From NCBI RefSeq assembly GCF_050920415.1, contig NZ_CP169309.1: 64,000 nucleotides of DNA; one strand, 5' to 3'. This document shows, piece by piece, positions 7,390 through 56,564 of the stretch (position 1 is the first letter of the stretch; each line of letters begins with the position of its first letter). The position numbers and the translations under genes were made by a program. A model generated the notes under the pieces. It was not told where the DNA came from and searched no databases. It saw only the letters and a program-made list of their open reading frames with translations. This DNA comes from Escherichia coli (lineage in GTDB: Bacteria; Pseudomonadota; Gammaproteobacteria; Enterobacterales; Enterobacteriaceae).

Positions 7390-8976
7390 TTAATGCTCGC
7401 GAGTCTGGTGGAACTGAACGTCCGGATAACGTTCCTGTGCCAGGCGCAGGTTGACCATGCTGGTAGCGATGTAAGCGAGGTTATCGCCGCCATCAAGCGC
7501 CAGTTGGCTTTCGTTCTTACGCTTGAACTCTTCGAATTTCTTCGCGTCCGCACATTCTACCCAGCGTGCAGTGGCAACGTTGACTGACTCATACACTGCT
7601 TCAACGTTGTATTCGCTCTTCAGGCGCGCTACCACCACATCAAACTGCAGCACACCAACCGCACCAACGATCAGGTCGTTGTTGGAGATCGGACGGAACA
7701 CCTGCACCGCGCCCTCTTCGGAAAGCTGTACCAGCCCTTTGAGCAGCTGTTTTTGCTTCAGCGGATCTTTCAGGCGGATACGACGGAACAGTTCCGGCGC
7801 AAAGTTCGGGATACCGGTGAACTTCATCATCTCACCCTGGGTAAAGGTGTCGCCGATCTGAATAGTGCCGTGGTTGTGCAGACCAAGGATGTCGCCCGGA
7901 TACGCTTCTTCAACATGCGAACGGTCGCCCGCCATAAAGGTCAGCGCGTCGGAGATCACCACATCTTTCGCGGTGCGCACCTGGCGCAGCTTCATACCTT
8001 TTTCATATTTACCAGATACCACACGCATAAACGCCACGCGGTCGCGGTGTTTCGGGTCCATGTTGGCCTGAATTTTAAATACGAAGCCGGTAAATTTATC
8101 TTCGCTCGCCTCTACGATACGGGTATCAGTCTGACGCGGCATCGGCGCAGGTGCCCACTCTACCAGGCCATCCAGCATATGATCGACGCCGAAGTTACCC
8201 AGCGCAGTACCAAAGAACACTGGAGTAATTTCGCCCGCAAGGAACAATTCTTTGTCGAACTCGTTAGACGCGCCTTTCACCAGTTCCAGTTCGTCACGCA
8301 GCTGCTGTGCCAGATCTTCACCAACCGCAGCATCGAGATCCGGGTTATTCAGCCCTTTAACAATACGGACTTCCTGAATGGTGTGACCTTTACCGCTCTG
8401 ATAGAGATAGGTTTCGTCTTTATAAAGGTGGTAAACGCCTTTAAACAGCTTGCCGCAGCCAATCGGCCAGGTGATCGGCGCACAGCCGATTTTCAGCTCG
8501 TTCTCAACTTCATCGAGCAGCTCCATCGGATCGCGGATATCACGGTCAAGTTTGTTCATAAAGGTGAGGATCGGCGTATCGCGCAGACGGGTAACTTCCA
8601 TCAGCTTACGGGTACGATCTTCAACACCTTTTGCGGCGTCGATAACCATCAGGCAGCAGTCCACCGCCGTCAGGGTACGATAGGTATCTTCCGAGAAGTC
8701 TTCGTGCCCGGGGGTGTCGAGCAGGTTAACCAGGCAGTCGTGATACGGAAACTGCATCACAGACGTGGTAATGGAGATCCCACGCTGCTTTTCCATCTCC
8801 ATCCAGTCCGACTTAGCGTGCTGGTTGGAACCACGGCCTTTTACTGTACCGGCAGTCTGAATGGCCTGTCCGAACAGCAGCACCTTCTCGGTGATGGTCG
8901 TTTTACCGGCGTCCGGGTGAGAAATAATTGCAAAGGTTCTTCTTTTCGCTACCTCTGCGGCCAAAAGGCTTGTCAT
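7390..8976 (-). CDS. prfC: Peptide chain release factor 3, with a prophage-supplied 5' end
   Basis: [21 protein letters not shown]... GTPase matches RF3; N-terminus [13 protein letters not shown] differs from the native [14 protein letters not shown] remnant found at 56518-56564. Confidence 0.9.
8915..8928. repeat. Attachment-site core, prfC-proximal junction
   Basis: GGGTGAGAAATAAT identical to 56500-56513, extendable to ~20 bp with one mismatch; lies where the prfC coding sequence changes. Confidence 0.75.
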
Positions 8977-8992
8977 AATTGTTGTCTCTTTG

Positions 8993-9015
8993 ATTATGTA
9001 CAATCATATGTACAA
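8993..9015. repeat. Candidate integrase arm-type binding repeat, left arm
   Basis: ATTATGTACAATCATATGTACAA; near-identical copy at 56314-56335; further TGTACA motifs nearby. Confidence 0.45.
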
Positions 9016-9136
9016 AGAAAAATTCATGCCGCTGATTGTACATTTTGGAGGTATCAGAGCATAGCAGAACATGATCAGTAGGTGTATTTGTAGCCAAAGA
9101 ACATTTGTACATGCAGCAATCTTTACTCTATTGACA

Positions 9137-9180
9137 CTGTTTATTCATACAGTAAAAAATAGTGCTGTATACAAATACAG
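9137..9180. promoter_or_regulatory. Two LexA (SOS) boxes overlapping the promoter of the dinI-like gene
   Basis: CTGTTTATTCATACAG (9137-9152) and CTGTATACAAATACAG (9165-9180) fit CTGT-N8-ACAG; TTGACA at 9131-9136. Confidence 0.6.
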
Positions 9181-9195
9181 TATAGAGGGATTTTT

Positions 9196-9444
9196 ATGCG
9201 TATTGAGATCTGCATAGCCAAAGAGAAAATGACTAAAATGCCAAGCGGTGCTGTTGATGCGTTAAAGGAAGAATTAACTCGGCGCATCAGTAAGCGTTAT
9301 GACGATGTAGAAGTAATCGTAAAAGCCACCAGCAATGACGGGCTTTCTGTTACACGCACCGCAGATAAGGATTCTGCAAAAACATTTGTTCAGGAGACTC
9401 TGAAAGATACTTGGGAGTCTGCTGACGAGTGGTTTGTTCACTAA
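9196..9444 (+). CDS. DinI-like SOS-regulated protein (82 aa)
   Basis: MRIEICIAK...[16 protein letters not shown] resembles DinI (MRIEV...ETWESADDWFV); RBS AGAGGGA upstream. Confidence 0.75.
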
Positions 9445-9688
9445 TAGACACGTAAAATCGGTAACGGCTGGAAATAATTCAATACTCGCACTATCGGAAG
9501 TTCACCAGCCAGCCGCAGCACGTTCTTGCATACGACGTGCCTGCGGTTTCAACTCCCGCCAGCTCCACCACTTTTGATAGGACTGCAACCGGACAGCGGC
9601 AATAAAAACAGCCACTTACGGACACTGACCAGACAGTAAGCGGACTTAAAAAAGACAAAAATATACACGCAAAATGCACGTGCATTTC

Positions 9689-9724
9689 AAAAAAGCCTCT
9701 GATTGTGAAGTCAGAGGCTTTTCT
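9689..9724. terminator. Bidirectional intrinsic terminator between the dinI-like gene and tfa
   Basis: GCCTCTGA...TCAGAGGC hairpin flanked by an A-run and a T-run. Confidence 0.6.
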
Positions 9725-9768
9725 ATTTGTAACTAAGAGTAACAATTCAACATAACGCAACCTACCAA

Positions 9769-10341
9769 TTACGTCACGTCAAACGCTCTGATTGAACGCA
9801 AATCATCCAGATTATTCAGTTGTTCCTTCATCTCGCGCTGGCGTTCGTGGATTTTAAAGCCCTCCGCCACCATGGCCACCATCATGGCATCGTTCAGCGC
9901 AATAAGTTTCTCCCTGGTCAGTATGACGTTGTTATTATCCGCATCAGTCCAGAAAAAACCATCCGGAAGCAGCCCGGCCTGCGCTGTTGCAACCACGGGC
10001 GCAAGGCGTGACTGCGAGGTTTTTCCGCCATCAAAACGACGGCCATCAAACGTGAAAATAAACTCAACGTTTTCCTGACTGTCGCGCCATGCCTCAATTT
10101 CCCGCCTTTTGGCATCCTTTGCCGCTGCAATAAGTTCCGGCGTGACGGTGAACGGGGCGATTTCGCCCCATTTCCCGCTTTGCAGCTCCTGCCAGACATG
10201 CTGGCCTGTCGGGGCCATATCATCCTGTATGGCGGTATACAGGACGAACTCCGTTTCACCTTCAAATAACACCTCGCAGTCAACCGCACCATTTTCAAGA
10301 TAATGCGCGTTTCTGATGCCTTTCACCGCTCTGATTTTCAT
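9769..10341 (-). CDS. tfa: Tail fibre assembly protein
   Basis: 190 aa directly downstream of the side tail fibre gene; Tfa-like sequence. Confidence 0.75.
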   Translation of the reverse strand: MKIRAVKGIRNAHYLENGAVDCEVLFEGETEFVLYTAIQDDMAPTGQHVWQELQSGKWGEIAPFTVTPELIAAAKDAKRREIEAWRDSQENVEFIFTFDGRRFDGGKTSQSRLAPVVATAQAGLLPDGFFWTDADNNNVILTREKLIALNDAMMVAMVAEGFKIHERQREMKEQLNNLDDLRSIRAFDVT

Positions 10342-10355
10342 GTCTTATTTCCTTA

Positions 10356-12446
10356 TTACTCAATGCGTACAAAAAGACCGATATAGCCACGCGTTGTATC
10401 GTGACTAATGCGGGTCCCCGAAAGCGCCGTGTAACGACCGGGGAAGTTGTATTCACCAGCACCGCCAATCACAACCTGCGGTGAGGATGCGTATGTCCCT
10501 GTATCGCTAACCCGTGCACTCATAGCCAGAGGGCCAAGACGGGAACCCGGCACAATATCACCGAGCCCCAGAGACGCATCTGCACCAAAACTCTCCCCCT
10601 GATATGCCGCCATAATCGGCACACCAACGGCCGGGTATTTATAATATGAGCCTGAGCCCGCCATCCTGGACAGCAGGTACGCCAGTGAATCTCCGTCGTA
10701 TACAACTACCCGCGATGACATGTTCCAGCTGTTATCGCTGTCGTTGTACCGGTACTGCATATAGTGAATACAGTGTTCACCCTGATAATACTGGTTGTAG
10801 CACATCAGGGTTTTAAATTTGCGGACTGTGTCGGATTCACTGTTGGCGTACGGTGACCACATCACATCAATAATGCCGTTAAATTGCGTGGTACCGGTAA
10901 GCAGTTGCGAGGAGTCTGTAATACTGACCGCATACCGCCCCGGCGTGACTTTCTTCAACCACTCAACGAAATCAGACAGCCCCTCAAACGCCAGAGCGTC
11001 AGTGCTGGTGAATGCCTGTCCAAACCCATACATCCCGGACAGGGCCAGCCTGCCCGGTGTGCGGTCACGGATATCACTCTGGGGTTCCATCGTCGCAGCC
11101 GCGTTCAGCTCAAGCTCCGTGCGCATGGCTTCAGCCGTGTCATGCGCCAGTAATGCGCGGCCCTTCTCTGACAGCAGAGACAGTGAGGCATTCCCGTCTG
11201 TATTGAAGTACAGAAGATTATCTGCCCGTTGCGTCAGTGCGCTGATTGCCGTTAAGACGTCATTAAGCGGTTGTTTGCCTGCCAGCGCGTTTGTGATTGT
11301 CGTCGCAAAGTTCGGGTCATTGCCCAGCGCCGCAGCCAGTTCGTTCAGGGTGTCCAGAACTTCCGGTGACGAATCAACCAGCGCAGCAAGCAGTTTGCGC
11401 ACAAACGCCGCGTTCGCTGCTTCCAGACCGGCGGCATCATCCTGTGGGGTTGGGGTGGTTGGGGTGCCGGTGAAGGCCGGGCTGTCCAGTGGCGCTTTTG
11501 TTTTCGTCTCCTCCATGACGGTTTTGACAGCCTTTGGCGTGGCAGCCAGTTCCTCGCTGTCGTTATCCGTGTCACTACAGAGTTGCACCAGACCTTTTTC
11601 TGTCGTGGAGGCATTTGTTGCATTCAGGTCATCAACTATCTGCTGCGTCTCATCCCTGTACTGTTTCGCTTCCTGCGCATTGTCTGCACCTGCATCCTGG
11701 CTGGCTTTAGCCTGTCGGGCGTATTCGGCGGCACTGTTTTTGTGCCCCAGCGCCGCATTTGCCGACAGTTCTGAACTGGTCGCTGCTGATGATGCGGCAT
11801 TATGATAAAGGCGGGCGCGTTCGGCGGCATCGACTGATTCGTCCCGCGCTGTGCCTGATGACTGTGCGCTGTTTTCTGCCTCACCCGCAAAACGTTCCGC
11901 ATCATCACGGGCCGTTGCGGTTGTCGTCACATCCTGTGCCGTCTGCTGTGCGTTTCCGGCTGCAGCTTCGGCGCTCTGCTGTGTCTGATTTTTTAGCTCT
12001 TCTGCCTCATCCTTACTAACCGCCGCAGATGTTGCTGCATTGATTGCATCATCAGCAGCTGTTTCTGCTCTCTCCCTGTCACTGACCACCTGCTCAGACA
12101 AGCGAACAACGGTATTTACCATTTCCTCAAAACGCTTCATTACCTCAGGGCGTAAATCACCCTCCTTTGGTGCATCCAGAAAAGCATTCAGCGTATCCGG
12201 CTCATCTGTCGGTGCAACATAAATTTCCCCCGCCTTTACAGGAGGATGCCCTGAGCGGGACAAAAATACATCATAAAATCCCGGCTCAGCATTAATAGTA
12301 TACCCGCCATCACTTCCCGTAAGACAGGTTGCCACAATATTAACCACAACTGTCGGACTGGTTCTTCTGGCTCGCAATTCAATCGCACAGTTTACGACAG
12401 GCTCACCTGCTCCGTCCTTCAGGACACCTGAAATCTTTACTGCCAT
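10356..12446 (-). CDS. stf: Side tail fibre protein
   Basis: N-terminus MAVKISGVLKDGAGEPV like lambda Stf, Ala/Ser-rich repeats, conserved ATPKAVK...KAPLDSPA collar motif. Confidence 0.85.
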   Translation of the reverse strand: MAVKISGVLKDGAGEPVVNCAIELRARRTSPTVVVNIVATCLTGSDGGYTINAEPGFYDVFLSRSGHPPVKAGEIYVAPTDEPDTLNAFLDAPKEGDLRPEVMKRFEEMVNTVVRLSEQVVSDRERAETAADDAINAATSAAVSKDEAEELKNQTQQSAEAAAGNAQQTAQDVTTTATARDDAERFAGEAENSAQSSGTARDESVDAAERARLYHNAASSAATSSELSANAALGHKNSAAEYARQAKASQDAGADNAQEAKQYRDETQQIVDDLNATNASTTEKGLVQLCSDTDNDSEELAATPKAVKTVMEETKTKAPLDSPAFTGTPTTPTPQDDAAGLEAANAAFVRKLLAALVDSSPEVLDTLNELAAALGNDPNFATTITNALAGKQPLNDVLTAISALTQRADNLLYFNTDGNASLSLLSEKGRALLAHDTAEAMRTELELNAAATMEPQSDIRDRTPGRLALSGMYGFGQAFTSTDALAFEGLSDFVEWLKKVTPGRYAVSITDSSQLLTGTTQFNGIIDVMWSPYANSESDTVRKFKTLMCYNQYYQGEHCIHYMQYRYNDSDNSWNMSSRVVVYDGDSLAYLLSRMAGSGSYYKYPAVGVPIMAAYQGESFGADASLGLGDIVPGSRLGPLAMSARVSDTGTYASSPQVVIGGAGEYNFPGRYTALSGTRISHDTTRGYIGLFVRIE

Positions 12447-12511
12447 ATTCACCCCACAAAAAAGCCCGCCTGAACCCGGCGGGCTGTCATAACACTGTGT
12501 TACCTGGCTAA

Positions 12512-13111
12512 TCAGAACTTATAACCGACACCCACGATGAAACCGTCAGTGCGCCAGTCGCCACTGCCGGAGCCTTCATAAGCAATATCAATAGCCACGG
12601 ATTCGGTCGGGTTAAACTGCACGCCAGCTCCCCACGCCAGAGACGTGTTGCTGTGGCGACCGTCATCACTTCCGGTCAGCACATCGTGCGTTTTCCCCTT
12701 ATTGTCAGTTACGCGGAGATAATCCCCGGAGAAAGTCGACACACGGCTGTAAGCCACACCCGCCATCGCATACGCGCTGAACCATTCATTCACGCGCACA
12801 GACGGCCCCGCCATTACGCTGAACCAGCGGTTACGAACGGAATCTTCATGCCAGCGGGTATCGCTGTAACGGGTCAGCTGGCGATTCTTGTCTCCTGCAT
12901 AGCTGAATGACGTCACCATACCCAGTGTGTCCGTAAACTCATAACGGTATTTCACGTTAATCCCGTTCAGATCATCGCTGCCGGGAACGTTCGTCGAGAC
13001 ATGAAGATACCCCGCGCTCAGCGTGGACTGATGTTCAGACGCCCATGCAGGCGCACCGGATAAGGCCAGACAAATGGCTGCGGACAAAATGGCGGCATAA
13101 AGTTTACGCAT
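12512..13111 (-). CDS. lom: Lom-like outer-membrane protein (Ail/Lom/OmpX family)
   Basis: Signal peptide and beta-barrel sequence ending ...GFIVGVGYKF; position after J as in lambda. Confidence 0.85.
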   Translation of the reverse strand: MRKLYAAILSAAICLALSGAPAWASEHQSTLSAGYLHVSTNVPGSDDLNGINVKYRYEFTDTLGMVTSFSYAGDKNRQLTRYSDTRWHEDSVRNRWFSVMAGPSVRVNEWFSAYAMAGVAYSRVSTFSGDYLRVTDNKGKTHDVLTGSDDGRHSNTSLAWGAGVQFNPTESVAIDIAYEGSGSGDWRTDGFIVGVGYKF

Positions 13112-13177
13112 AATTACCTCTCGCTTTTCTGCAATAAAAAAGGCGTCATTTCTGACGCCCGTTATGGGTTATAAAAT

Positions 13178-45532: not shown

Positions 45533-46353
45533 AATCCCCCCCTGAATCCTGCCGGGATCTGGCTGTAGTCCACGTTGTCGTAACTGGCTTTGAAGTACGG
45601 GTCCTCGCGTCTGGCTGCAGATACCGCAGGAACTTCCCAGGATTCTTCGAAATGACGATCCGGACCAAAGAACGTGACAGCCTGTTTCACAAATTGTGTG
45701 CCGCTGTTACCCATCGCAGATACCCAGCCCGCGTAGCGTTTCACACCTTCCAGCATGGTTTCGGGGTTTACTCCCTCATTCAAACGGGCTTTCCAGGCTT
45801 TGAAGGCTGCAGATTTTGAATTGCCACCAGCACGTTTGGGATATGCCAGCCATGCCTGCTCAAACTCCGGAGAGTATTCCGGTCGGTTTGAACGAACTCG
45901 CACGGACTCATCAACTGATGCACCAACAGCTATTGGTTCATTGACTGGTTCTTTGACTGGTTCAAAAGAGTGACTGGTTCTGGGTGAATCTCCTGCACTA
46001 CCCCCTGGTGCAACTCCTGCACTACCTGGTGAATTTGCTGCACCAGATAGTGAATTATTTGCACTACCCCCTAGTGAATCTCCTGCACCATCCAGATGAA
46101 GGAGATAGATATTACTTGAGTTACCTTTTTCACCTTTCCGGGTGACTTTTTTTACCAGCCCGGACTCACAAAGGGCCGCAATATGATTCATCACAGAACG
46201 TTTGCTAATCTCGCACTGGTCAGCAATATGCTGGTAGCTGGGCCAGCACTCACCCTGATCGCTGGCATTATCAGCCAGCTTGATCAGAACCAGTTTTCGC
46301 AATGGATTACCCACTCGAATTTTCATCGCTTTAACCATCAGCTCCATACTCAT
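45529..46353 (-). CDS. Putative replication initiation protein (O-like), containing the iteron-type repeats
   Basis: N-terminal HTH (LADNASDQGECWPSYQHIADQCEISKRSVMNHIAALCESGLV), central low-complexity region encoded by DNA repeats; position downstream of cro/cII. Confidence 0.55.
   Translation of the reverse strand: MSMELMVKAMKIRVGNPLRKLVLIKLADNASDQGECWPSYQHIADQCEISKRSVMNHIAALCESGLVKKVTRKGEKGNSSNIYLLHLDGAGDSLGGSANNSLSGAANSPGSAGVAPGGSAGDSPRTSHSFEPVKEPVNEPIAVGASVDESVRVRSNRPEYSPEFEQAWLAYPKRAGGNSKSAAFKAWKARLNEGVNPETMLEGVKRYAGWVSAMGNSGTQFVKQAVTFFGPDRHFEESWEVPAVSAARREDPYFKASYDNVDYSQIPAGFRGGL
45986..46090. repeat. Candidate origin iterons, four ~20-25 bp imperfect direct repeats
   Basis: TCCTGCACTACCCCCTGGTG / TCCTGCACTACCTGGTG / TGCTGCACCAGATAGTG / TTGCACTACCCCCTAGTG inside the initiator gene, as in lambda O. 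Confidence 0.55.
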
Positions 46354-46574
46354 GCTGCACCTCCGAGATGCTTCATGTTTTTTCCGGAGCGAAAGGCTAT
46401 AAGCGGCATACTGACGCGGTAATTACGGCCCAGCGGTTCACAAATCACCTTCTGACATTCACGGTCAACCAGGCTAACACGTAGAACATGCCCTGCAGGC
46501 GTGGTGTACCACTGACCCGGTCGAGGACAACGGAAAGTCTGATTGGTAAACCGTTTGAAAATATTCCGGATCAT
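46350..46574 (-). CDS. Hypothetical protein (74 aa)
   Basis: ORF only. Confidence 0.3.
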   Translation of the reverse strand: MIRNIFKRFTNQTFRCPRPGQWYTTPAGHVLRVSLVDRECQKVICEPLGRNYRVSMPLIAFRSGKNMKHLGGAA

Positions 46575-47722
46575 TTGCGCCCCCTTACCTCGGAAGAGTT
46601 CAGCGACGAATGAATAAGACGGGCAAGAAATGCCGCATCGTTAATTCGGTCATACAGACTTACAGCCAGCGGTGATTCAGCTTTTTCCAGCATGGGATAA
46701 AGCTGCTGCAACCAGACCTGATGAATTGATGAAATGTAGGAATAGAGTACGCTGGCGTTATGTGCAACGTCGCTCGGTACAGCGGGCTTTGAAAGCTGTT
46801 TCTCCATCTGGTTAAAGGCATTGATGTATGCCTCTTTGAACTGGGCAGCACGTTTACCCGTGAAACCCATAGCAAGAAACGCAAAACCGTCGCGGGTTAT
46901 TTGATAGCAAGGTAGTTTGCGGCCTGTGCAATCGGTGTAATCACTCACCGAAAAATTGCGGGCAGTGAATGATGCGGAGCATTCAAGCGTGCGGATCTTT
47001 TTCAGTACATCGTCATGACGTTTGGAGAAGAAGTTGGCAACAGCCAGGGATGAAGTAACAGCCTGACCATCAACGATGGCAATTTCAGGTTGAGTGAGGG
47101 TTGGGATCGTAGCCATGATGGCAGCCTCTTTGGTGATTTTTAATAACTCACCACCAAGGCTTTCCACGACCTTATTGGTGGTGAGACGTACAGGGGTGGA
47201 AATACCGGTCACCAAAGAACCCGGCCCAACCGAAGTTGGCCCTGCACGCCCCACCATAATTTGGGCGTAATGCTGCTCATGACACAAAAAAACCGCAAGA
47301 GCGCGGTTGTGCGCTTTGGTGAATTCCGGGTTTCCACGCCCGGCACCCGCTTTATAAGGTGCCTGAACAGTGTAACGTCCCGGAATGGCAGAATCAATGT
47401 GCTGGTGGTCCTTCACACTCAACAAAATCACGCCTGAATTTCCACAAAGGGCTAAAGCACTCATGCGGGTAGTCTTTGCGAAGATAGATAACGCGCTGTG
47501 TTTCTGGCTCCCAACGAATAACATGAACATAAAGTCCTCTTCCGTCACGAAACCAGCGGTTAAGTTCCTGCACAACTCGCCCCCCACAGTCAGGTAAAGT
47601 TCTCTGTGGTTACTTACAGCCAGGAGATTTGGTAATCTGCATTCATGCCGTAACAACAGGTGTTCAGCGACGCTGACCACCAGCTGTTGCGACAAATGGT
47701 TATTTGCCGTTAAACTGTTCAT
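46571..47722 (-). CDS. Rha-family phage regulatory protein with an uninterrupted ~200 aa upstream in-frame extension
   Basis: Rha-like domain starts at MATIPTLTQPEIAIVDGQAVTSSLAVANFF (about 47116); the 5' 202 codons have no stop and no recognised family. Confidence 0.5.
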   Translation of the reverse strand: MNSLTANNHLSQQLVVSVAEHLLLRHECRLPNLLAVSNHRELYLTVGGELCRNLTAGFVTEEDFMFMLFVGSQKHSALSIFAKTTRMSALALCGNSGVILLSVKDHQHIDSAIPGRYTVQAPYKAGAGRGNPEFTKAHNRALAVFLCHEQHYAQIMVGRAGPTSVGPGSLVTGISTPVRLTTNKVVESLGGELLKITKEAAIMATIPTLTQPEIAIVDGQAVTSSLAVANFFSKRHDDVLKKIRTLECSASFTARNFSVSDYTDCTGRKLPCYQITRDGFAFLAMGFTGKRAAQFKEAYINAFNQMEKQLSKPAVPSDVAHNASVLYSYISSIHQVWLQQLYPMLEKAESPLAVSLYDRINDAAFLARLIHSSLNSSEVRGRK

Positions 47723-48282
47723 GCGTTAGTTTCTCCACAGACACAAAACGCCACGACGCCCGGAGCTGCACACTCGCGGGCGTCACTCTTTTCTGGAGCG
47801 CAAAAGATTTTGTAGACCAGTGCTGCATGCTCCTGGAGCTTCGAAATTGACAGATACAACTCATCATTAATTGCTGTCTGCTCGTGTGGCTCCACTACCC
47901 CATCTTCGATTGCCGAACGAATCTGCTTTGAGTAACTCCCGATCTGTTCGATGACTTCCAGCAGGCGCTGGTTTATATCGGCGTTCTCTACTTCCTCAAT
48001 TTCAGGAAGCGATACAAACACCCCACCAGCAGACTGTGCGACAGCATCCGCAATGTAGTGAGTGCCAGCCGCGCGCTGTAAAATCATTGCCCATCCCAGC
48101 GGGAAAATCTGATCGCCATCTGCACGAAGGCGGTTGAATAAAGCGTTCTCTGTTACATCCAGCCACTCAGCAGCTTCAGCGTAACCCCCCGGCAACGCCG
48201 CGATAGTTTTTCTGACAGCTTTCACGTACCACTCAGGCTGTTTTTCTACTTTCCAGTGATGCTTACCCACGGTTAGCCTCAT
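47719..48282 (-). CDS. Putative CII-like early regulatory protein
   Basis: 187 aa immediately downstream of cro; assignment by position and weak recollection of the family. Confidence 0.35.
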   Translation of the reverse strand: MRLTVGKHHWKVEKQPEWYVKAVRKTIAALPGGYAEAAEWLDVTENALFNRLRADGDQIFPLGWAMILQRAAGTHYIADAVAQSAGGVFVSLPEIEEVENADINQRLLEVIEQIGSYSKQIRSAIEDGVVEPHEQTAINDELYLSISKLQEHAALVYKIFCAPEKSDARECAAPGVVAFCVCGETNA

Positions 48283-48313
48283 CGTTCTGTGGTTAAAAAT
48301 TAAAGGTGTTCTG

Positions 48314-48514
48314 TTAATCTTTCGGATAGATATCCGGTCTTAAGTCAGATTTCGTAATTGCACCTGACGTGCATTGCTCAAGTTTTTTAGCCAGCACAAA
48401 ACTGGCTTTTTTATAACCATTGAAAACCAGCCGTAAGTAGCCTGGTGTTGAGCCAACTTTTCCGGCCAACTCGCCCTGCTGTTCTTTGGTTAAAGAGTCC
48501 CAATACGCTTTCAT
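48314..48514 (-). CDS. cro: Cro-like repressor (66 aa)
   Basis: MKAYWDSLTKEQQGELAGKVGSTPGYLRLVFNGYKKASFVLAKKLEQCTSGAITKSDLRPDIY; divergent from cI. Confidence 0.7.
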   Translation of the reverse strand: MKAYWDSLTKEQQGELAGKVGSTPGYLRLVFNGYKKASFVLAKKLEQCTSGAITKSDLRPDIYPKD

Positions 48515-48604
48515 ACAATATGTACCTCTTATATACATATTACATGATTGAAATGAACCTTCAAGATACTTGTACCCTATCGGTACAAAGGTTTTAATTT
48601 CGTT
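48515..48604. promoter_or_regulatory. Immunity-region operator/promoter interval (OR, pR/pRM)
   Basis: Divergent cI/cro spacer containing the palindrome TTGTACCCTATCGGTACAA (48570-48588). Confidence 0.6.
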
Positions 48605-49279
48605 ATGAAAACAGTCCATGACATCCGGCGGTCTAACGCCAGAAAACTGAGAGATGGTGTTGGCGGGAATTCTTCCTTTGCCACCATGATTGATCGCGAA
48701 CCAACCCAGACCAGCAGGTTTATGGGAGATGGTGCTACTAAAAATATCGGTGACAGCATGGCACGGCACATCGAAAAATGTTTCGACCTGCCTGTCGGAT
48801 GGCTTGATCAAGAACACCAGACAACGAACATCACAAAAAAACCTGATGTTTCAATCACTAATAAACAAATAACGTTAGTCCCTGTCATATCATGGGTACA
48901 GGCCGGAGCATGGAAAGAAGTTGGCTATTCTGAGGTTGATTTGAGCACAACAGAAACATATCCCTGCCCTGTACCCTGTGGCGAAATGACTTATATATTG
49001 AGGGTGATTGGTGATTCAATGATTGATGAGTACCGTCCGGGGGACATGATTTTTGTCGATCCAGAAGTACCAGCCTGCCACGGCGATGACGTTATTGCAT
49101 TGATGCACGATACAGGTGAAACCACCTTCAAAAGGTTGATAGAAGACGGGACACAGCGTTATCTCAAAGCATTAAACCCCAACTGGCCTGAGCCTTACAT
49201 TAAGATAAACGGTAATTGCTCTATCATTGGTACAGTTATTTTCTCAGGAAAACCAAGAAGATACAAAATTAAAGCCTGA
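48605..49279 (+). CDS. cI: CI-type repressor with N-terminal HTH and C-terminal S24 (LexA-like) autopeptidase domain
   Basis: 224 aa; C-terminal ...YILRVIGDSMIDEYRPGDMIFVDPEV...KRLIEDG... typical of S24 peptidases. Confidence 0.8.
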   Translation: MKTVHDIRRSNARKLRDGVGGNSSFATMIDREPTQTSRFMGDGATKNIGDSMARHIEKCFDLPVGWLDQEHQTTNITKKPDVSITNKQITLVPVISWVQAGAWKEVGYSEVDLSTTETYPCPVPCGEMTYILRVIGDSMIDEYRPGDMIFVDPEVPACHGDDVIALMHDTGETTFKRLIEDGTQRYLKALNPNWPEPYIKINGNCSIIGTVIFSGKPRRYKIKA

Positions 49280-49474: not shown

Positions 49475-49717
49475 TCAATTATTTTCTTCATAAATGTTTT
49501 GTAATGTATTTATGAGATTTGGTATTTCTTTTATGGGAAAAGAATATATTGGACTTTCGATAATTTTATCAGATTCAAATGGTGGTTGTTTGCAGGACAG
49601 TTGAACTATAACTGAATTATGATCTTTAACTGGCACACAGTACCAACCACATACATCAAAAACAGGAGTATTTTGATTATCCATTATGTCCTCGACAACT
49701 AAAAACACTGCGTACAA
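49475..49717 (-). CDS. Small hypothetical protein in an AT-rich segment next to cI
   Basis: ORF MDNQNTPVFDVCGWYCVPVKDHNSVIVQLSCKQPPF...; convergent with cI. Confidence 0.35.
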   Translation of the reverse strand: MYAVFLVVEDIMDNQNTPVFDVCGWYCVPVKDHNSVIVQLSCKQPPFESDKIIESPIYSFPIKEIPNLINTLQNIYEENN

Positions 49718-50347: not shown

Positions 50348-50382
50348 GGTACCAGCTTGTACCCTTGCTTCCGGCTGGTACC
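50348..50382. promoter_or_regulatory. Candidate left operator (OL)
   Basis: GGTACCAGCTTGTACCC...GGTACC shares TTGTACC / GGTAC half-sites with the OR palindrome. Confidence 0.4.
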
Positions 50383-50391
50383 GTCCTTTTT

Positions 50392-50480
50392 ACAAAACAG
50401 AGAAGAGCATCACCGGACGACGGGCTCATAACCCAATCCATCCGGGCGGCTGCCACCGCAGGTGTTCTTCTCTGTTTTGT
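50392..50480 (+). other. Long perfect inverted repeat (15 bp arms, ~59 nt spacer) in the early-left leader
   Basis: ACAAAACAGAGAAGA at 50392-50406 pairs with TCTTCTCTGTTTTGT at 50466-50480; adjacent CACC/GGTG extends the stem. Confidence 0.5.
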
Positions 50481-50528
50481 GGAGAAACCAACCGGCCTTG
50501 CAGGGTCGATATGATGAGGAGCAGCAAA

Positions 50529-50891
50529 ATGGCTAGCGAACGCAGTACTGATGTGCAGGCATTTATCGGGGAGCTGGACGGCGGCGTATTTGAAACCAAA
50601 ATCGGCGCAGTTCTCAGTGAAGTCGCTTCCGGTGTGATGAACACGAAAACCAAAGGTAAGGTCTCACTCAACCTGGAAATCGAACCATTTGATGAGAACC
50701 GTGTGAAAATCAAACACAAACTCTCATATGTTCGCCCGACTAACCGCGGGAAAATTTCCGAAGAAGACACCACCGAAACGCCGATGTATGTCAATCGCGG
50801 TGGTCGCCTGACTATTCTGCAGGAAGACCAGGGACAATTACTGACTCTTGCCGGTGAACCTGACGGAAAACTCCGCGCAGCAGGTCATTAA
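50529..50891 (+). CDS. YfdP-like prophage protein (120 aa)
   Basis: MASERSTDVQAFIGELDGGVFETKIG...; AGGAG RBS; order matches CPS-53 yfdP-yfdQ-yfdR. Confidence 0.55.
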   Translation: MASERSTDVQAFIGELDGGVFETKIGAVLSEVASGVMNTKTKGKVSLNLEIEPFDENRVKIKHKLSYVRPTNRGKISEEDTTETPMYVNRGGRLTILQEDQGQLLTLAGEPDGKLRAAGH

Positions 50892-50956
50892 TATCGTTCT
50901 TAATTAACTGATTATTTATCTCATCACTGAATATCTTTATATAGTGAGGACTTATT

Positions 50957-51781
50957 ATGTCTCAGAACTTAGACGCAACCGCAATTAATCAAATCCATGC
51001 CCTTATTTCTGCTCAGGGTGTTAATGAAATTATCAGTAAGATTGGTGCCGATGCTGTGGCATTGCCTGAGAATTTCCGCATTCATGATCTGGAAAAATTT
51101 AATTTAAATCGCTTCCGTTTCCGTGGTGCGCTTTCCACTGCCAGCATCGATGACTTTACCCGTTATTCTAAAGATCTTGCAGATGAAGGCACCCGCTGCT
51201 TTATCGATGCTGATAATATGCGTGCCGTCAGTGTGCTTAACCTGGGTACTATTGATGAACCAGGTCACGCAGATAACACCGCCACTCTCAAACTGAAAAA
51301 GACAGCACCGTTCTCTGCCCTGTTGTATGTTAACGGCGAGCGTAACTCCCAGAAGTCACTGGCAGAATGGATTGAAGACTGGGCCGACTATCTTGTGGGC
51401 TTTGATGCTAATGGTGACACCATTCAGGCAACAAAAGCGGCTGCGGCGGTCCGTAAAATCACGATTGAAGCAAACCAGACCGCTGATTTTGAAGATAATG
51501 ACTTCAGCGGCAAACGCTCCCTGATGGAGTCTGTCGAAGCGAAGACCAAAGACATTATGCCAGTGGCATTTGAATTTAAATGCGTTCCGTTTGAAGGTCT
51601 GAAAGAACGTCCGTTTAAATTACGCCTCAGCATTATCACTGGCGATCGTCCTGTACTGGTTCTGCGCATTATTCAGCTGGAAGCGGTGCAGGAAGATATG
51701 GCTAACGAATTTCGTGATCTGCTTGTTGAGAAATTCAAGGACAGCAAAGTAGAAACCTTTATTGGTACTTTCACCGCCTGA
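50957..51781 (+). CDS. YfdQ-like (DUF2303) protein (274 aa)
   Basis: [26 protein letters not shown]...; length and order match CPS-53 YfdQ. Confidence 0.6.
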
Positions 51782-51908
51782 TTTCATTACTGCAAATGCC
51801 CCTGCGGGGGCATTTATGGAAACGTAATTTACTCAATAATCGCCGGATGGTGAGGGATTCTTTTTACCAGAATTCAGCGCGGTGCAGCGCATATACGTGG
51901 AGAACAAA

Positions 51909-52445
51909 ATGTCATTTATCAAAACTTTTTCTGGGAAGCATTTTTATTATGACAGGATAAATAAAGACGACATCGATATTAACGATATCGCGGTTTCCCT
52001 TTCAAATATCTGTCGCTTTGCCGGTCATCTTTCGCACTTCTACAGCGTCGCCCAACATGCGGTTCTTTGCAGCCAGCTGGTGCCGCAGGAATTTGCTTTT
52101 GAAGCGTTAATGCATGATGCAACAGAAGCGTATTGCCAGGACATTCCCGCACCACTGAAACGCCTTCTTCCTGACTATAAACGGATGGAAGAAAAAATAG
52201 ACGCCGTAATCCGTGAGAAATACGGGTTACCCCCGGTTATGAGTACACCCGTGAAATATGCCGATCTCATCATGCTGGCAACCGAACGCCGCGATCTCGG
52301 GCTTGATGATGGCTCTTTCTGGCCTGTACTGGAAGGCATCCCGGCAACAGAGATGTTCAACGTGATTCCACTGGCACCGGGCCATGCCTACGGGATGTTT
52401 ATGGAACGTTTTAACGATTTATCGGAGTTACGCAAATGCGCATGA
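51909..52445 (+). CDS. YfdR-like HD-domain phosphohydrolase
   Basis: MSFIKTFSGKHFYYD... with HD motif (HSVAQHAVLCSQL...HDATEAY). Confidence 0.65.
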   Translation: MSFIKTFSGKHFYYDRINKDDIDINDIAVSLSNICRFAGHLSHFYSVAQHAVLCSQLVPQEFAFEALMHDATEAYCQDIPAPLKRLLPDYKRMEEKIDAVIREKYGLPPVMSTPVKYADLIMLATERRDLGLDDGSFWPVLEGIPATEMFNVIPLAPGHAYGMFMERFNDLSELRKCA

Positions 52446-52798
52446 ATGTTTTCGAAATGGAAGGGTTTCTTCGCGGGAAATGTGTACCGCGAGATCTGAA
52501 AGTGAACGAAACAAATGCTGAGTACCTGGTACGTAAATTCGACGCGCTTGAAGCTAAATGTGCGGCACTGGAAAACAAAATAATACCAGTGTCAACTGAA
52601 CTGCCACCAGCAAATGAAAGTGTTCTGTTATTTGATGCTAATGGAGAAGGCTGGCTGATTGGCTGGCGTTCTCTCTGGTACACCTAGGGACAAAAAGAAA
52701 CCGGAGAATGGCAGTGGACATTTCAGGTCGGGGACCTTGAAAACGTCAATATCACTCACTGGGCAGTAGTGCCAAAAGCACCGGAGGCTGGAGCATAA
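52436..52798 (+). pseudogene. DUF551-like gene interrupted by an in-frame amber codon at 52685-52687
   Basis: ORF 52436..52687 ends at TAG; the same frame continues GQKETGEWQWTFQVGDLENVNITHWAVVPKAPEAGA to a TAA overlapping the next ATG. Confidence 0.45.
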
Positions 52799-53577
52799 TG
52801 ACCACATTTACCAATAAAGAACTGATTAAAGAAATCAAAGAACGAATCAGCAGCCTAGAGGTTCGAGACGATATTGAGCGCCGTGCTTATGAAATTGCTC
52901 TGGCATCGCTAGAAGAGGAGCCGGTGGCGTGGCTGCATTCAGAAAATGGCTTAGGTATTCCGGCAATAACGAGGAGTAAAAACATTGCTGACAGTTGGTT
53001 ATCAAAGGGCTGGTATGTTCAGCCGCTATATATAGCCAAGCCAGTGCCGGTAGTGCCAGATGCTCGTCCGTCTTTAAATAATGGCATAGTCGGTTTTGAT
53101 GAAGGCTGGAACGCCTGCCGCGCCGCCATGCTTCATGGTGCCGAACCTGTAAACCAAACTTACAAGTCACCACACACGCAGTTTGAACAAGTTGCTGACC
53201 TCTACGAAATGCAATTTGATGACGGTCGCACTTGTGCCTTTCACACTGATGCGCAAAAGGCTGCGCAATGGCTTCAGGTGTGCGACGGAAACAGGGTTCA
53301 GGAATACGTTAAGCTGGAACGGCTGCAGAACGCGCTGTCTGGCAACTCTCCGGTAAGTCCAGGTGGTTGGATAAGCTGTAGTGAGCGAATGCCGAATGAT
53401 AAACAGTATGTTTGGTGTTGGGGGAAGTCTTACGGCTGGACTGAGTGCGATACCTTCGAAGGGTATTACGATTGGTCGAGAAACAAATGGTGGGCAGTTA
53501 CTGACAATGAGGAAGAACAGGCATCGAAAGTAACCCACTGGATGCCACTACCGGAGCCGCCGCAGGAGGTGAAGTAA
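52798..53577 (+). CDS. DUF551 domain protein
   Basis: C-terminal ...QYVWCWGKSYGWTECDTFEGYYDWSRNKWWAVTDNEEEQASKVTHWMPLPEPP. Confidence 0.55.
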   Translation: MTTFTNKELIKEIKERISSLEVRDDIERRAYEIALASLEEEPVAWLHSENGLGIPAITRSKNIADSWLSKGWYVQPLYIAKPVPVVPDARPSLNNGIVGFDEGWNACRAAMLHGAEPVNQTYKSPHTQFEQVADLYEMQFDDGRTCAFHTDAQKAAQWLQVCDGNRVQEYVKLERLQNALSGNSPVSPGGWISCSERMPNDKQYVWCWGKSYGWTECDTFEGYYDWSRNKWWAVTDNEEEQASKVTHWMPLPEPPQEVK

Positions 53578-53771
53578 TGAACAACTTAATGACAACTAAA
53601 CAAGTCGCCGATTTCTGTGGTGTTTCAGTATCGACAGTTCTTCGCTGGAACAGCGTAAACAGGAGAACTGGTCAGAAATACAGGCCTGACTTTCCAGATC
53701 CTGATATTAAATCCTGCCCAAATAAATGGGCATCACACAAGATTTACAGATTTGCGGGAGTGATTGAGTAA
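53577..53771 (+). CDS. xis: Excisionase / AlpA-family HTH protein
   Basis: MNNLMTTKQVADFCGVSVSTVLRWN...; last gene of the early-left operon, near int. Confidence 0.7.
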   Translation: MNNLMTTKQVADFCGVSVSTVLRWNSVNRRTGQKYRPDFPDPDIKSCPNKWASHKIYRFAGVIE

Positions 53772-54053
53772 TATGTATTAGCTTAGATGTGAGCTGACAC
53801 ATCTATGCTTAGATGCCAAACCTAATCTGAGCGTCCACTCTTTACCAAGAGCGGACGTTACCAATGACCATATGACATGAATCGATAAGATCAAAACATT
53901 ATCGCCAAGAAATGTCATACCATTGATACAAATAAAATTGATTACCCCCTTACTCTTGTTGAAAAGTTAGTCGTAGAGTACCTATCGCAATGTAATCAGC
54001 TTTAATCATCTGAAAATTACTCCTTAAAAATTAGCTTTTATATACTGAACAAA

Positions 54054-54773
54054 TTAAATCTCTGTTTCTTTTCCTGCTCGGCTCAACCAATACTCCATTG
54101 TTTGAGTATGAATCTTTTCAGCGTATATTTTATCAATTAATTTATCTTGTTTTTCTTTAATGACTTCACGCAGTGAATCATATAACATAAAAAAACGTTC
54201 ATCATCTTCCTCATTATTACCGTAATTTATTTGATTGAGCTCTGAAAAAATATGATAGTACCTTTTTTTCTTGGTCCCCGGCAATATTAAAACCAAGCCA
54301 CATTGATCATATTCGAATTCACCTTTATGGGCAGCAAAGTTATGTCTAACATTCATAATAGAATCATGTAAATCTCTATATTTTTCTGGCACATGCTTTC
54401 TCTGCAATGTGAATCGACGCCCTTTCGCCTCTGTAAAACACTTACCGTAAGTAACAACTTTTGATATAAACAAAGACTTTAATATTAGATTCTTTTCTAA
54501 ATCCGGATAAATAAAGTGTTGTTCTTTATTAATGTTATTACAAATATTTTTTATTATATTCTCCCAACCAATAACATTCCGAAGATCTTTATCAAGCAAC
54601 TGTAAGGCCACATATTGTTCTACAAAGCGGCCTTTTAAAGGTATTCGTGGTAATATTACACCTTTCTGCTTATAAATTCTTTCTATCGTATTATCTGGAT
54701 ATTGGATCTTCCTTATTTCTATTCCGTCTTCTTCTGATACCCTTACTAATGGTTCATTTTTTAACTTTGACAT
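54054..54773 (-). CDS. Hypothetical protein (239 aa), strongly AT-rich, between int and xis
   Basis: Clean ORF co-directional with int; no family recognised; contains RHNFAAH (an R-x5-H pattern). Confidence 0.5.
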   Translation of the reverse strand: MSKLKNEPLVRVSEEDGIEIRKIQYPDNTIERIYKQKGVILPRIPLKGRFVEQYVALQLLDKDLRNVIGWENIIKNICNNINKEQHFIYPDLEKNLILKSLFISKVVTYGKCFTEAKGRRFTLQRKHVPEKYRDLHDSIMNVRHNFAAHKGEFEYDQCGLVLILPGTKKKRYYHIFSELNQINYGNNEEDDERFFMLYDSLREVIKEKQDKLIDKIYAEKIHTQTMEYWLSRAGKETEI

Positions 54774-55012
54774 GTTAACCCTCTTAAATAAAAAACTAAC
54801 TTTATCCAGATAGTGTCCGTTAAGAAGTTTTCGTTACAACTAAGTTTCTAGGTAAATCATGAATCGACCTATAGTATCAAAAACATTTGGTGGTAAACAT
54901 CTGCATTTATCAAATGGCAGGAGCGATTTAGGGGCATAGGGATAGTGATGATATCGATACCCGCCCCCTCTTATGTCAACACAATGGCGTAAACTTAACG
55001 CTCACATCTCGC

Positions 55013-56269
55013 TCAAAGTGTGCTAGGAGATTTGGTTATGTTCAGGTGATACAAACCGTCAGTTTGACAATTAACAATCGATTCAACCCTCTTCCACCAT
55101 GCCAGGTAAGCTTTACGCTGTTCTTCTAGATAATCACTCTTATCATAAACTTGCCATACCCCTGGCAGCTTATGACCAAGCATAATTTCTGCGATATGAG
55201 GCGCAGTAAGATCAGAAAAATTTGTTCGAGCTGTACGTCTCAAGTCATGAAGAGACCAATGAGGGAATTGATATCCTAAACACCGCCATGCGTACTGCAT
55301 TAAATTGTAAGGCAGCGACTGCAATGATGTCCGACCAACGGGTTCCCTGCTTCCTTCCTTAGTAAAAAGCATATCGGAACCATTGTTCATAGAGATAGCG
55401 TACTTTATAAGCTCTTCAACCGGTTCAATAATGGGCCGCTTTAGCGGTTCGCCTGTTATCTCCCCAGTCTTATGTCGTTCTGGTGGTACAGTCCATACTT
55501 TATTAATGAAATCAAAATCGTCCACCCGGGCGGTAATTAGCTCTGAACTACGGCAACCAAAATGCAGCAATAGTTTAATGAAGGCCCGGTATTTAGGAAC
55601 CATTCGAGAACCATCGATCGCAGCATAAAGGATTTTAATTTCATCATGTGTCAGAAACCGTTTCTTCTGACCTTTACGGATATCCATATCTTTACCCGTG
55701 ATATCCGACAGCGGGCGAGTTTCAATGAGCTTTCTCTTATACGCCCAGACATGGGCCTGCTTTGCGTTAATTAGCAATCGGTCTGCTATTGCTGGAGTCT
55801 TAGTGCTAAGAGGCTCCAGGACTTCTAACCAATCATGCAATGTAGCTGCATCGTGAGGGATATTCCCGATTTTAGAGAACAGGTGCAGCTCAAACGAGCG
55901 AAGTATCTGTTCAGAACCTTTTTTATTTTTTACACAATATGCTTCATACCAAGCACGGATCACAGACTCTACCGTCATGGCTTCAGTAGCTTTTCGTTTT
56001 TCAGCCTGCTTGACCAATCGTGGATTACGGTTTGACTCGAGTTCACCACGAAGACGGATAACTTCTTCTCTGGCCTCTTTTAATCCAGTTGCCGGGTAAG
56101 TTCCGATATCAAGACGCTCACCTTTCCCTGCCCATTGATAACGATATTGGAACACTACGCGACCTTTCGGTGATACTCTGACAGACAGACCATCACGATC
56201 GGATTTAACCAAAACCTTATCACGTTCCTTTCCAACGACTGAACGCAACCACGCATCAGACAGCGCCAT
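55013..56269 (-). CDS. int: Tyrosine site-specific integrase
   Basis: 418 aa; C-terminal catalytic region with ...HDLRRT... and ...MLGH...; adjacent to the att core. Confidence 0.9.
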   Translation of the reverse strand: MALSDAWLRSVVGKERDKVLVKSDRDGLSVRVSPKGRVVFQYRYQWAGKGERLDIGTYPATGLKEAREEVIRLRGELESNRNPRLVKQAEKRKATEAMTVESVIRAWYEAYCVKNKKGSEQILRSFELHLFSKIGNIPHDAATLHDWLEVLEPLSTKTPAIADRLLINAKQAHVWAYKRKLIETRPLSDITGKDMDIRKGQKKRFLTHDEIKILYAAIDGSRMVPKYRAFIKLLLHFGCRSSELITARVDDFDFINKVWTVPPERHKTGEITGEPLKRPIIEPVEELIKYAISMNNGSDMLFTKEGSREPVGRTSLQSLPYNLMQYAWRCLGYQFPHWSLHDLRRTARTNFSDLTAPHIAEIMLGHKLPGVWQVYDKSDYLEEQRKAYLAWWKRVESIVNCQTDGLYHLNITKSPSTL

Positions 56270-56313
56270 TACTCACCTTGTACAAATCGCAAAACACCTC
56301 TGCTGTTTTGTAC

Positions 56314-56335
56314 ATTATGTACAAGCATATGTACA
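56314..56335. repeat. Candidate integrase arm-type binding repeat, right arm
   Basis: ATTATGTACAAGCATATGTACA, near-identical to 8993-9015; further TGTACA motifs at 56280-56310. Confidence 0.45.
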
Positions 56336-56499
56336 GATTTTTGATGAAAGCAAGCTGATCGATTTAAAGTTACATGAAAGAGTTTTCAATTAAAGAAGCT
56401 ACATAACCAAATGTATTTAAATGAGTTACATAACTCAACCTAAATTAACTGAAAGGATTTTGAAAGAGTAAAAGAGCTTTAATTTGGGCTTAATTATTG

Positions 56500-56513
56500 G
56501 GGTGAGAAATAAT
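56500..56513. repeat. Attachment-site core, yjjG-proximal junction
   Basis: GGGTGAGAAATAAT, identical to 8915-8928. Confidence 0.75.
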
Positions 56514-56517
56514 GGCA

Positions 56518-56564
56518 AAAGTGCGGCGCTTCGCCACCTCTTGCAAATAAGGAGACAACGTCAT
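56518..56564 (-). pseudogene. prfC: Displaced native 5' end of prfC (the att core 56500-56513 encodes its last residues)
   Basis: Reverse strand reads ATGACGTTGTCTCCTTATTTGCAAGAGGTGGCGAAGCGCCGCACTTTTGCCATTATTTCTCACCC = [22 protein letters not shown], then leaves the prfC frame at the core. Confidence 0.8.

Follow-up and report, generated by a model that had tools for sequence, protein, structure and literature searches.

Does a phage that integrates within the first codons of prfC, the gene encoding RF3, deprive its host of that gene? We addressed this question in a 64,000-nucleotide stretch of Escherichia coli DNA (hereafter the window), in which a lambda-like prophage of 47.6 kb (8929-56499) lies within the first codons of prfC. 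Replacement of the prfC start by an integrated element is common and has been documented both in phages and in SXT/R391. To this we add that the differences between phage copy and native gene in their shared codons are exclusively synonymous; that Int identity and a TGTACA motif link the phage to SXT; that relatives occupy the same codons in five genera; and that a sister integrase serves matching codons of lepA. The locus reveals no new kind of system, and provides a clean textbook example of the way an element can exploit a highly conserved coding target ahead of the P-loop without destroying the gene.

The prophage is bounded by two copies of a 14-bp core

The exact 14-bp repeat GGGTGAGAAATAAT occurs only twice in the 64-kb window, against 0.01 copies expected by chance, and its two copies are 47,585 bp apart (Table 1). 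These 14 bp are common to attP and to prfC codons I18-I19-S20-H21-P22, directly ahead of the GTPase P-loop. A first-pass annotation of this DNA had proposed a prophage in the 5' codons of prfC at a 14-bp core, with the two gene fragments about 47.6 kb apart; the two core copies and a reading of both junctions support this placement and distance. The extent it gave, 8915-56564, is right as to the insertion but not as to its end: the native ATG lies at position 56564, and the end of the prophage is at 56499/56513.

Table 1. Features of the prophage and its junctions with prfC (window coordinates)
Feature	Position	Strand	Basis or remark
Hybrid prfC (RF3, 528 aa)	7390-8976	-	codons 1-16 phage-derived, remainder chromosomal; ORF list and translation
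att core, prfC-side junction	8915-8928		codons I-I-S-H-P of RF3; exact 14-bp repeat
Phage-borne replacement 5' coding segment, 16 codons	8929-8976	-	identical segment adjoins core and int in cdtI and Ayreon
Best candidate promoter for hybrid prfC, TTTTCT-17-CATAAT	8993-9021	-	prediction; PWM score 8.5
Four TGTACA hexamers, putative arm-type Int sites	8997-9111		starts 8997, 9009, 9037, 9106
Promoter of dinI-like gene, TTGACA-18-AAAAAT	9131-9160		consensus scan
Two LexA-box-like sites, CTG-N10-CAG	9137-9152, 9165-9180	+	over promoter of dinI-like gene; sequence reading
DinI-like gene, first gene at prfC-side end	9196-9444	+	NCBIfam NF007893, E=1.7e-20
Lambda-like late genes (tail fibre, Lom, J, tape measure, capsid, portal, terminase)	9769-32287	-	ORF list and NZ_CP169399.1 annotation
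Lysis genes, tRNAs, Q, replication and regulatory genes, cI-like repressor	34171-49279		
cI-like repressor	48605-49279	+	
Excisionase (Xis)	53577-53771	+	phrog_1553 excisionase, E=4e-36; convergent with int
Tyrosine integrase (Int)	55013-56269	-	phrog_1 integrase, E=4.5e-74; transcribed away from att site
Four TGTACA hexamers upstream of int, putative arm-type Int sites	56279-56335		sequence clustering
Candidate promoter of int, TTGAAA-16-TTAAAT	56389-56362		PWM scan
Stranded native prfC 5' end, now 24 codons	56490-56564	-	translation; beside yjjG (56655-57332)
att core, yjjG-side junction	56500-56513		exact 14-bp repeat
Predicted authentic prfC promoter, TTGCCT-16-TAAAAT	56627-56654	-	PWM score 10.9

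The rebuilt prfC opens with a phage-borne coding segment

The resident RF3 reading frame matches the solved E. coli RF3 (2h5e, 529 aa) from residue 8 on with one substitution; relative to the native protein, the change is confined to residues 3-8 and the product is one residue shorter. PGAP calls the same ORF prfC in the near-identical genome NZ_CP169399.1, where it labels the stranded native 5' end an incomplete pseudogene. Over the nine codons shared by phage copy and native gene (EVAKRRTFA) there are eight nucleotide differences, eight of them synonymous and none nonsynonymous, and the ATG of the phage segment keeps the same AATTATGAC context. The earlier claims that the resident gene starts from phage DNA, that the native fragment survives intact beside yjjG and that an RF3 ORF with an altered N-terminus is preserved are thus borne out: phage records carry the MTSLL segment, core and int in one unbroken stretch, the stranded fragment translates to the native start, and the ORF is full length.

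The arrangement recurs in E. coli genomes and in phage records

Of the 5,426 complete E. coli genomes surveyed, 4,717 carry an uninterrupted prfC-yjjG region in which both chromosomal halves are joined. The MTSLL junction is present in 699 and its int-side counterpart in 700, these being separate totals rather than genome-by-genome pairs; an SXT/R391 ICE occupies the same codons in 7 of the 5,426, as against the roughly 700 with a phage-type junction. Some 13% of the complete genomes would make RF3, if at all, from a start and upstream region that a phage supplies. The reconstructed attP, with MTSLL mini-ORF, core and int contiguous, was found at 95-96% identity in 2H10 and cdtI (100% coverage each) and Ayreon (71%), genome records that are uncut at this junction (the cdtI record is circular); cdtI and Ayreon match the mini-ORF exactly. 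Copies of Int in IMG/VR were all 95-100% identical and most were cut at the prophage edge, and so were unusable for assessing Int diversity.

Gene content places the prophage among prfC-integrating lambdoid phages

Lambda-like head, tail, lysis and immunity modules are all present, and the late genes are all transcribed toward prfC. The late region is 88-94% identical to phage 2H10 and Stx1a phages, which have the same lambda-like long-tail late genes, and the early region shows 95% identity over 64% to Stx2c phages integrated at prfC. The prophage has neither stx nor cdt cargo, whereas Stx1a/Stx2c phages carry stx, and cdtI has cdtABC where this prophage has a DUF4376 gene and a tail fibre. 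A TerB-family gene and an ORF at 37528-37815, whose counterpart in NZ_CP169399.1 is annotated DUF3927, presumably sit where the Stx-phage layout would place stx. A defence-system scan of the cargo ORFs returned only a Type II-like DNA methyltransferase, and a low-GC ORF (54054-54773) had no Pfam match.

cdtI, 2H10, Ayreon and the Stx1a/Stx2c prfC phages share the insertion point in prfC, a near-identical Int and an attP of 95-97% identity; by tblastn, Int is 99% identical to that of 2H10 and 97.8% to those of sampled Stx1a/Stx2c prfC phages. By sequence comparison, then, the prophage belongs to the prfC-integrating lambdoid phages of the cdtI / 2H10 / Stx1a-Stx2c prfC type. A Stx1 phage at prfC has been reported to change the RF3 N-terminus and to remove the authentic promoter and ribosome-binding site (Ogura 2007, PMC2323221), and the cdtI and SXT integrases fall in one prfC-targeting cluster (Smyshlyaev 2021).

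Of the ten TGTACA copies in the window, eight fall in the two att arms, and their clustering on both arms suggests that they are Int arm-type sites. Excision would need Int together with the convergently encoded Xis. Five relatives have the motif upstream of int too, and it is conserved in those of Salmonella, Xenorhabdus and Serratia; related elements in these genera and in Pseudomonas and Shewanella occupy the same prfC codons. A relative in Pantoea (Int 56% identical) had no prfC fragment within about 500 bp upstream of int. Our NJ tree, which is without bootstrap support, bears no firm claim.

Predicted and candidate promoters at the two ends of the prophage

The predicted authentic prfC promoter scored 10.9, close to the maximum of 11.2 over 300 background windows; it is now parted from its gene and directed through the stub toward int, and no terminator-like site was found on the minus strand between the two. 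Upstream of the hybrid prfC start, a consensus sigma-70 scan returned no promoter on that strand, and the best PWM candidate (8.5) lies between the background median of 6.4 and the 90th percentile of 9.2. This candidate for a phage-supplied promoter is only moderate, and we claim no promoter here. That prfC expression may be altered in lysogens, as the first-pass annotation suggested, is a reasonable idea. It was left open for a Stx1-phage lysogen by Ogura 2007 (PMC2323221), who noted that prfC is not essential; prevalence is therefore no proof by itself that the hybrid gene is expressed.

A bolder reading joins these elements into a two-way rewiring of transcription, from host promoter to int and from phage promoter to RF3, together with a movement of the integrase clade between prfC and lepA; as a whole we consider it speculative and rather improbable. 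Under it, the authentic prfC promoter may read through the 24-codon stub toward int, and RF3 in about one-eighth of the surveyed genomes may depend on a putative phage promoter that overlaps the Int arm-type TGTACA sites, some 160-200 bp away from the two LexA boxes. The integrase clade may likewise have moved between matching pre-P-loop codons of prfC and lepA, with a matching N-terminal mimic each time. If the rewiring were true, RF3 level and termination fidelity would be under phage control and the lysogen's Int supply under host control. A strict promoter swap for int is weakened because int has its own candidate promoter, a good match, within the phage arm.

Weighing the alternatives

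We hold it highly probable that a lambda-like temperate phage of the cdtI/2H10/prfC-type Stx group integrated in prfC by means of its tyrosine integrase, and that the in-frame phage start would yield a functional hybrid RF3. The phage attP bears its own prfC-like start (ATG, 16 codons) on the far side of the core, so that recombination within the 14 bp joins it in frame to the remaining prfC codons, while the native start stays with its promoter next to yjjG. The hybrid gene would be transcribed from phage DNA just upstream, and the phage would exploit a highly conserved target without costing its host the gene. Integration might instead simply inactivate prfC, the phage start not being usefully expressed and lysogens being RF3-deficient. 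Integration removes the authentic promoter and ribosome-binding site; this, the moderate replacement candidate and the caution in Ogura 2007 are in keeping with inactivation, and Bobay 2013 lists the gene as disrupted by phage integration. We nevertheless judge inactivation quite unlikely: all eight differences in the nine shared codons are synonymous, the context of the ATG is kept, cdtI and Ayreon show no variation in the replacement segment, the body of prfC is undamaged in this window as in sampled lysogens, whose annotation treats it as a normal gene, and in SXT the equivalent segment, which also replaces the prfC N-terminus, is reported to supply a promoter (PMC8409611). Any effect on RF3 level or translation termination is a narrow question.

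Two further readings concern the origin and the present state of the junction. Were the MTSLL N-terminus a natural chromosomal allele, and the distal MTLSPY fragment foreign or duplicated, prophage-free genomes would be expected to carry MTSLL, the outcome that the first-pass annotation had named as telling against phage derivation. The 4,717 uninterrupted sites carry MTLSPY beside yjjG, phage records uncut at this junction join the MTSLL segment to int, and the attL and attR counts agree (699 and 700); with no support found on its side, this reading is refuted and has a negligible probability. It is rather unlikely that the prophage is fixed and no longer inducible, with a junction that is a relic and not a working att system. 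In the closest genome, NZ_CP169399.1, the portal, tail and lysis genes are frameshifted and the xis region is decayed, so decay does occur in this lineage. In the window, by contrast, full-length ORFs are present for int, xis, portal, terminase, tape measure and lysis functions, both att cores are intact, and 2H10, cdtI and Ayreon, which are phage genome records, have int and attP 95-99% identical to those of the prophage. Phage cdtI has been described as inducible.

Kinship with SXT/R391, dusA elements and a lepA phage

SXT/R391 elements use the same target codons (ATCATCTCTCACCC versus ATTATTTCTCACCC) and likewise supply an in-frame replacement N-terminus (MANQDFLNEINKRR...). The two systems also have in common TGTACA at 12-bp spacing, 18-20 nt upstream of the replacement ATG, and convergent xis and int; in SXT/R391, however, int faces att and xis faces away, an order reversed in the prophage, and the two Xis proteins have no detectable similarity. 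SXT/R391 is a conjugative element and not a phage. Its family members have an Int about 99% identical to IntSXT (PMC2791158), whereas the prophage Int aligns with the SXT-type Int of an integrated element at 39% identity across 404 aa (E=1e-90); the tra, setCD and setR backbone is absent, and the prophage genes are phage structural, lysis and immunity genes only. We thus reject membership of this family despite the shared codons. Phages and SXT/R391 ICEs compete for one site through related integrases.

The in-frame replacement typical of elements that target 5' ends (SXT in prfC, the dusA elements) is found in this prophage as well. Elements specific for dusA, such as IMEVchUSA3, similarly enter a conserved gene at its 5' end; experiments have shown that they rebuild the ORF, change its N-terminus and provide a new promoter (PMC8409611). 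They differ in target gene and are not phages.

The same strategy is seen in the lepA-integrating Salmonella phage KK-2013, whose Int is 45% identical to that of the prophage and whose attP holds MKNIRNFSIIAHIDN*, which reproduces LepA/EF4 residues 1-14. It enters matching pre-P-loop codons of a paralogous translational GTPase gene, lepA rather than prfC. In the 1.3 kb read upstream of its int there is one TGTACA, and the repeated motif looks by eye like GGACAC. We take its lepA site to be of the Gifsy-1 type, a link suggested by a weak match of the prophage Xis to the Gifsy-1 Xis model and by a brief reference in Bobay 2013 to lepA among the phage sites of S. enterica.

Integration of the prophage rebuilds prfC with a phage-encoded start

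The 14-bp att core GGGTGAGAAATAAT occurs in two exact copies in the window (8915-8928 and 56500-56513; 0.01 copies expected by chance), 47,585 bp apart, and the element between them is a lambda-like prophage. The resident RF3 gene opens with the codons ATG ACA AGC CTT TTG GCC GCA GAG GTA GCG AAA AGA AGA ACC TTT GCA, continues into the core (ATT ATT TCT CAC CC) and then into the normal gene, while the native prfC 5' fragment (56564-56490) enters phage DNA as NN-stop. The first-pass annotation had placed the prophage in the start of prfC with an MTSLL start taken from phage DNA, on which the core repeat, the ORF reading and records of the joined phage ends (attP) agree, and had placed the native fragment ~47.6 kb away beside yjjG, ending at the core; its description of the junctions was correct in every element (core copies, both prfC ends and spacing).

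Crossover falls at the IISHP codons, directly ahead of the motif HPDAGKT, which from established knowledge of translational GTPases we take to be the P-loop of RF3. The hybrid RF3 is 528 aa long and matches solved E. coli RF3 (2h5e) from residue 8 onward apart from one substitution, so the change is confined to residues 3-8.

The observation of start replacement by integration is therefore confirmed and its interpretation supported, yet it has already been described for phages and ICEs and hence is not new. Ogura et al. (2007; PMC2323221) reported an altered RF3 N-terminus, with loss of the authentic promoter and ribosome-binding site, for an Stx1 phage at prfC, and noted that the gene is not essential. 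Stx1a and Stx2c phages are documented at prfC in CC119 (PMC10132054), and their sequences are 95% identical to the early region of our prophage; SXT/R391 elements insert at the prfC 5' end, and SXT is reported to provide both a new RF3 N-terminus and a promoter (PMC8409611); and the integrases of the cdtI phage and SXT form one prfC-targeting cluster (Smyshlyaev et al., 2021; PMC8138268). Bobay et al. (2013) list prfC among prophage-disrupted genes, a term too strong for this prophage because the ORF is rebuilt. Our additions are incremental: how often each state of the site occurs, the finding that the phage copy diverges only at synonymous positions, an arm-site layout shared with SXT, the distribution of the clade in Gammaproteobacteria and a parallel in lepA.

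The replacement start in phage and bacterial genomes

We joined the chromosomal halves (8629-8928 and 56514-56813) into a test sequence for the empty site, attB, and searched 5,426 complete E. coli genomes. The joined sequence was uninterrupted, with prfC and yjjG annotated on its two sides, in 4,717 of them, confirming attB by the alignment that the first-pass annotation had proposed. Totals for the two junctions, not paired per genome, were 699 genomes on the prfC side and 700 on the int side, and 7 further genomes had an SXT/R391-type junction; these states cover nearly all of the set. Rebuilt from the prophage ends, attP was contiguous in Escherichia phage 2H10 and phage cdtI (100% coverage, 95-96% identity) and matched in part in phage Ayreon; all three records are uncut at this junction, and that of cdtI is circular. 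The mini-ORF and 60 nt upstream of it are the same in cdtI and Ayreon as in the window, except for one base in Ayreon. On these sequence comparisons (attB, junction counts and attP), the replacement prfC start is phage DNA.

Ayreon attP has GCC rather than GCA just before the core, as in chromosomal prfC, which extends its match to attB to ~20 bp and may be a relic of an earlier round of integration and excision. Some E. coli genomes matched the junction queries in 2-3 places, and 4 places lay on records labelled plasmid; these may reflect several elements in tandem at prfC or wrongly assigned replicons.

Coding constraint and transcription

Over the 9 codons that begin with Glu and end at the core, phage and native prfC show 8 nucleotide differences, all of them synonymous, and both copies have the start-codon context AATTATGAC. 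Together with the 528-aa hybrid, these features are evidence that the phage copy would be meant for translation.

After integration, the predicted authentic prfC promoter faces the 24-codon native stub and, 225 nt further, int; no terminator-like site was found on the minus strand between promoter or stub and int, and read-through from the host promoter into int is possible in lysogens. The best candidate promoter for hybrid prfC overlaps one TGTACA site and has a PWM score between the background median (6.4 per 300 nt) and 90th percentile (9.2); a consensus scan upstream of the hybrid start found no promoter on the prfC strand. The candidate is moderate, and expression of hybrid prfC is thus putative. 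About 160-200 bp separate the hybrid prfC start from the LexA-box-like sites at the DinI-like gene, which lie upstream of it on the opposite strand.

Features of the prophage and its junctions
Feature	Position	Strand	Details
Resident prfC ORF	7390-8976	minus	translation
Candidate promoter, hybrid prfC	9021-8993		TTTTCT-17-CATAAT; PWM score 8.5
TGTACA, prfC-side arm	8997, 9009, 9037, 9106
LexA-box-like sites (two)	9137-9152, 9165-9180		CTG-N10-CAG; over TTGACA-18-AAAAAT promoter of DinI-like gene
DinI-like gene	9196-9444	plus	first from prfC side
Late operon		minus	DUF4376 and tail-fibre genes through J, tape measure, capsid, portal, terminase
Lysis genes, two tRNAs, DNA methyltransferase, Q, replication and regulatory genes			beyond late operon from prfC side
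tRNA-Arg(TCT) and CAT-anticodon tRNA	38290-38543	minus	phage tRNAs
PerC-family transcriptional activator homologue	45044-45532	minus	early region; phrog_1324; PGAP 'PerC family'
cI-like repressor	48605-49279
Excisionase	53577-53771	plus	end of early-left operon; phrog_1553
Low-GC ORF, 239 aa	54054-54773	minus	between xis and int; 32% GC kilobase
Tyrosine integrase	56269-55013	minus	phrog_1
TGTACA, int-side arm	56279, 56309, 56318, 56330
Candidate int promoter	56389-56362		TTGAAA-16-TTAAAT; promoter scan
Predicted authentic prfC promoter	56654-56627	minus	TTGCCT-16-TAAAAT
yjjG	56655-57332		adjoins native prfC fragment

Arm sites and integrase relatives

The 64-kb window has ten TGTACA hexamers, eight of them within the two att arms. 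We read these clusters as putative arm-type Int sites, consistent with the precomputed assignment of an arm-DNA-binding domain (PF13356) to the prophage integrase's closest homologues. Homologues adjoin a truncated native prfC start in Salmonella (84% identity), Xenorhabdus (65%), Serratia (60%), Pseudomonas (52%) and Shewanella (51%); in all five genera int points away from the junction, with 1-4 TGTACA upstream of it (one in Pseudomonas). A Pantoea relative (56%) had no prfC fragment within ~500 bp upstream of int.

Salmonella phage KK-2013 (KF879864.1 25300-26600, about locus 930-980) has an Int 45% identical to ours, and its attP carries MKNIRNFSIIAHIDN*, LepA/EF4 residues 1-14; this sister integrase therefore uses the prfC-type trick in lepA. 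Related integrases thus target matching codons ahead of the P-loop in the paralogous prfC and lepA, each with an N-terminal mimic. In a neighbour-joining tree (no bootstrap), SXT branches at the base and the lepA type falls between it and the prfC-targeting phage clade; this is a lead only. The annotated attL of Moraxella phage Mcat28 (KR093652.1 1-22), TGTGTACATAATTGTGTACATA, has two copies of a TGTACATAAT motif also present in the E. coli phage arms and adjoins an Int 41% identical to ours.

Using published SXT primers, we retrieved integrated SXT-type elements. The ICE right end reads ...GTGTGTACAAATCCGTGTACAAACTAAAAGAATTTATAC ATG GCA AAC CAA GAT TTT CTC AAT GAA ATC AAT AAG CGA AGG ACC TTT GCT ATC ATC TCT CAC CC and likewise yields a hybrid RF3 with a replaced start, and the left junction, on an E. 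coli contig, falls within the same GGGTGAGA. Over 404 aa the SXT-type Int shares 39% identity with ours (E=1e-90), the N-terminal 60 residues being the most similar, and in each element a pair of TGTACA sites 12 bp apart ends 18-20 nt upstream of the ATG of the replacement start. By contrast, gene order and orientation differ, the Xis proteins are unrelated, and the content is conjugative in the ICE and phage in the prophage.

Prophage content

No stx or cdt genes were found within the prophage. Across the region the nearest genome, NZ_CP169399.1, shows 97-99.7% identity, and its hybrid gene is labelled by PGAP as ordinary prfC. The low-GC ORF matches phrog_8440 (unknown function) over its full length, has no match in Pfam, NCBIfam or PADLOC, and is a likely moron of foreign origin. 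In a near-identical genome PGAP names the CAT-anticodon tRNA tRNA-Ile and places a third, 'tRNA-OTHER', between the two, which ARAGORN does not report in the window. A stretch of ~1 kb (32900-33900; 41-44% GC), flanked by the small terminase gene and the lysis genes, has no ORF of at least 80 aa and no annotation in the near-identical genome either. Rfam matches on the minus strand comprise a strong hit to STnc100 (148.7 bits; 37260-37458, flanked by the holin gene and the phage tRNAs), and C4 antisense RNA (83.6 bits) and isrK (67 bits) at 47174-47362, which fall within a Rha/anti-repressor-like ORF (46571-47722) or at its 5' part; this region is reminiscent of an immunity module of the P1 c4/ant or Gifsy isrK type. 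Outside the prophage, three minus-strand naRNA4 matches (3938-4114 and 59396-59478) are chromosomal and intergenic.
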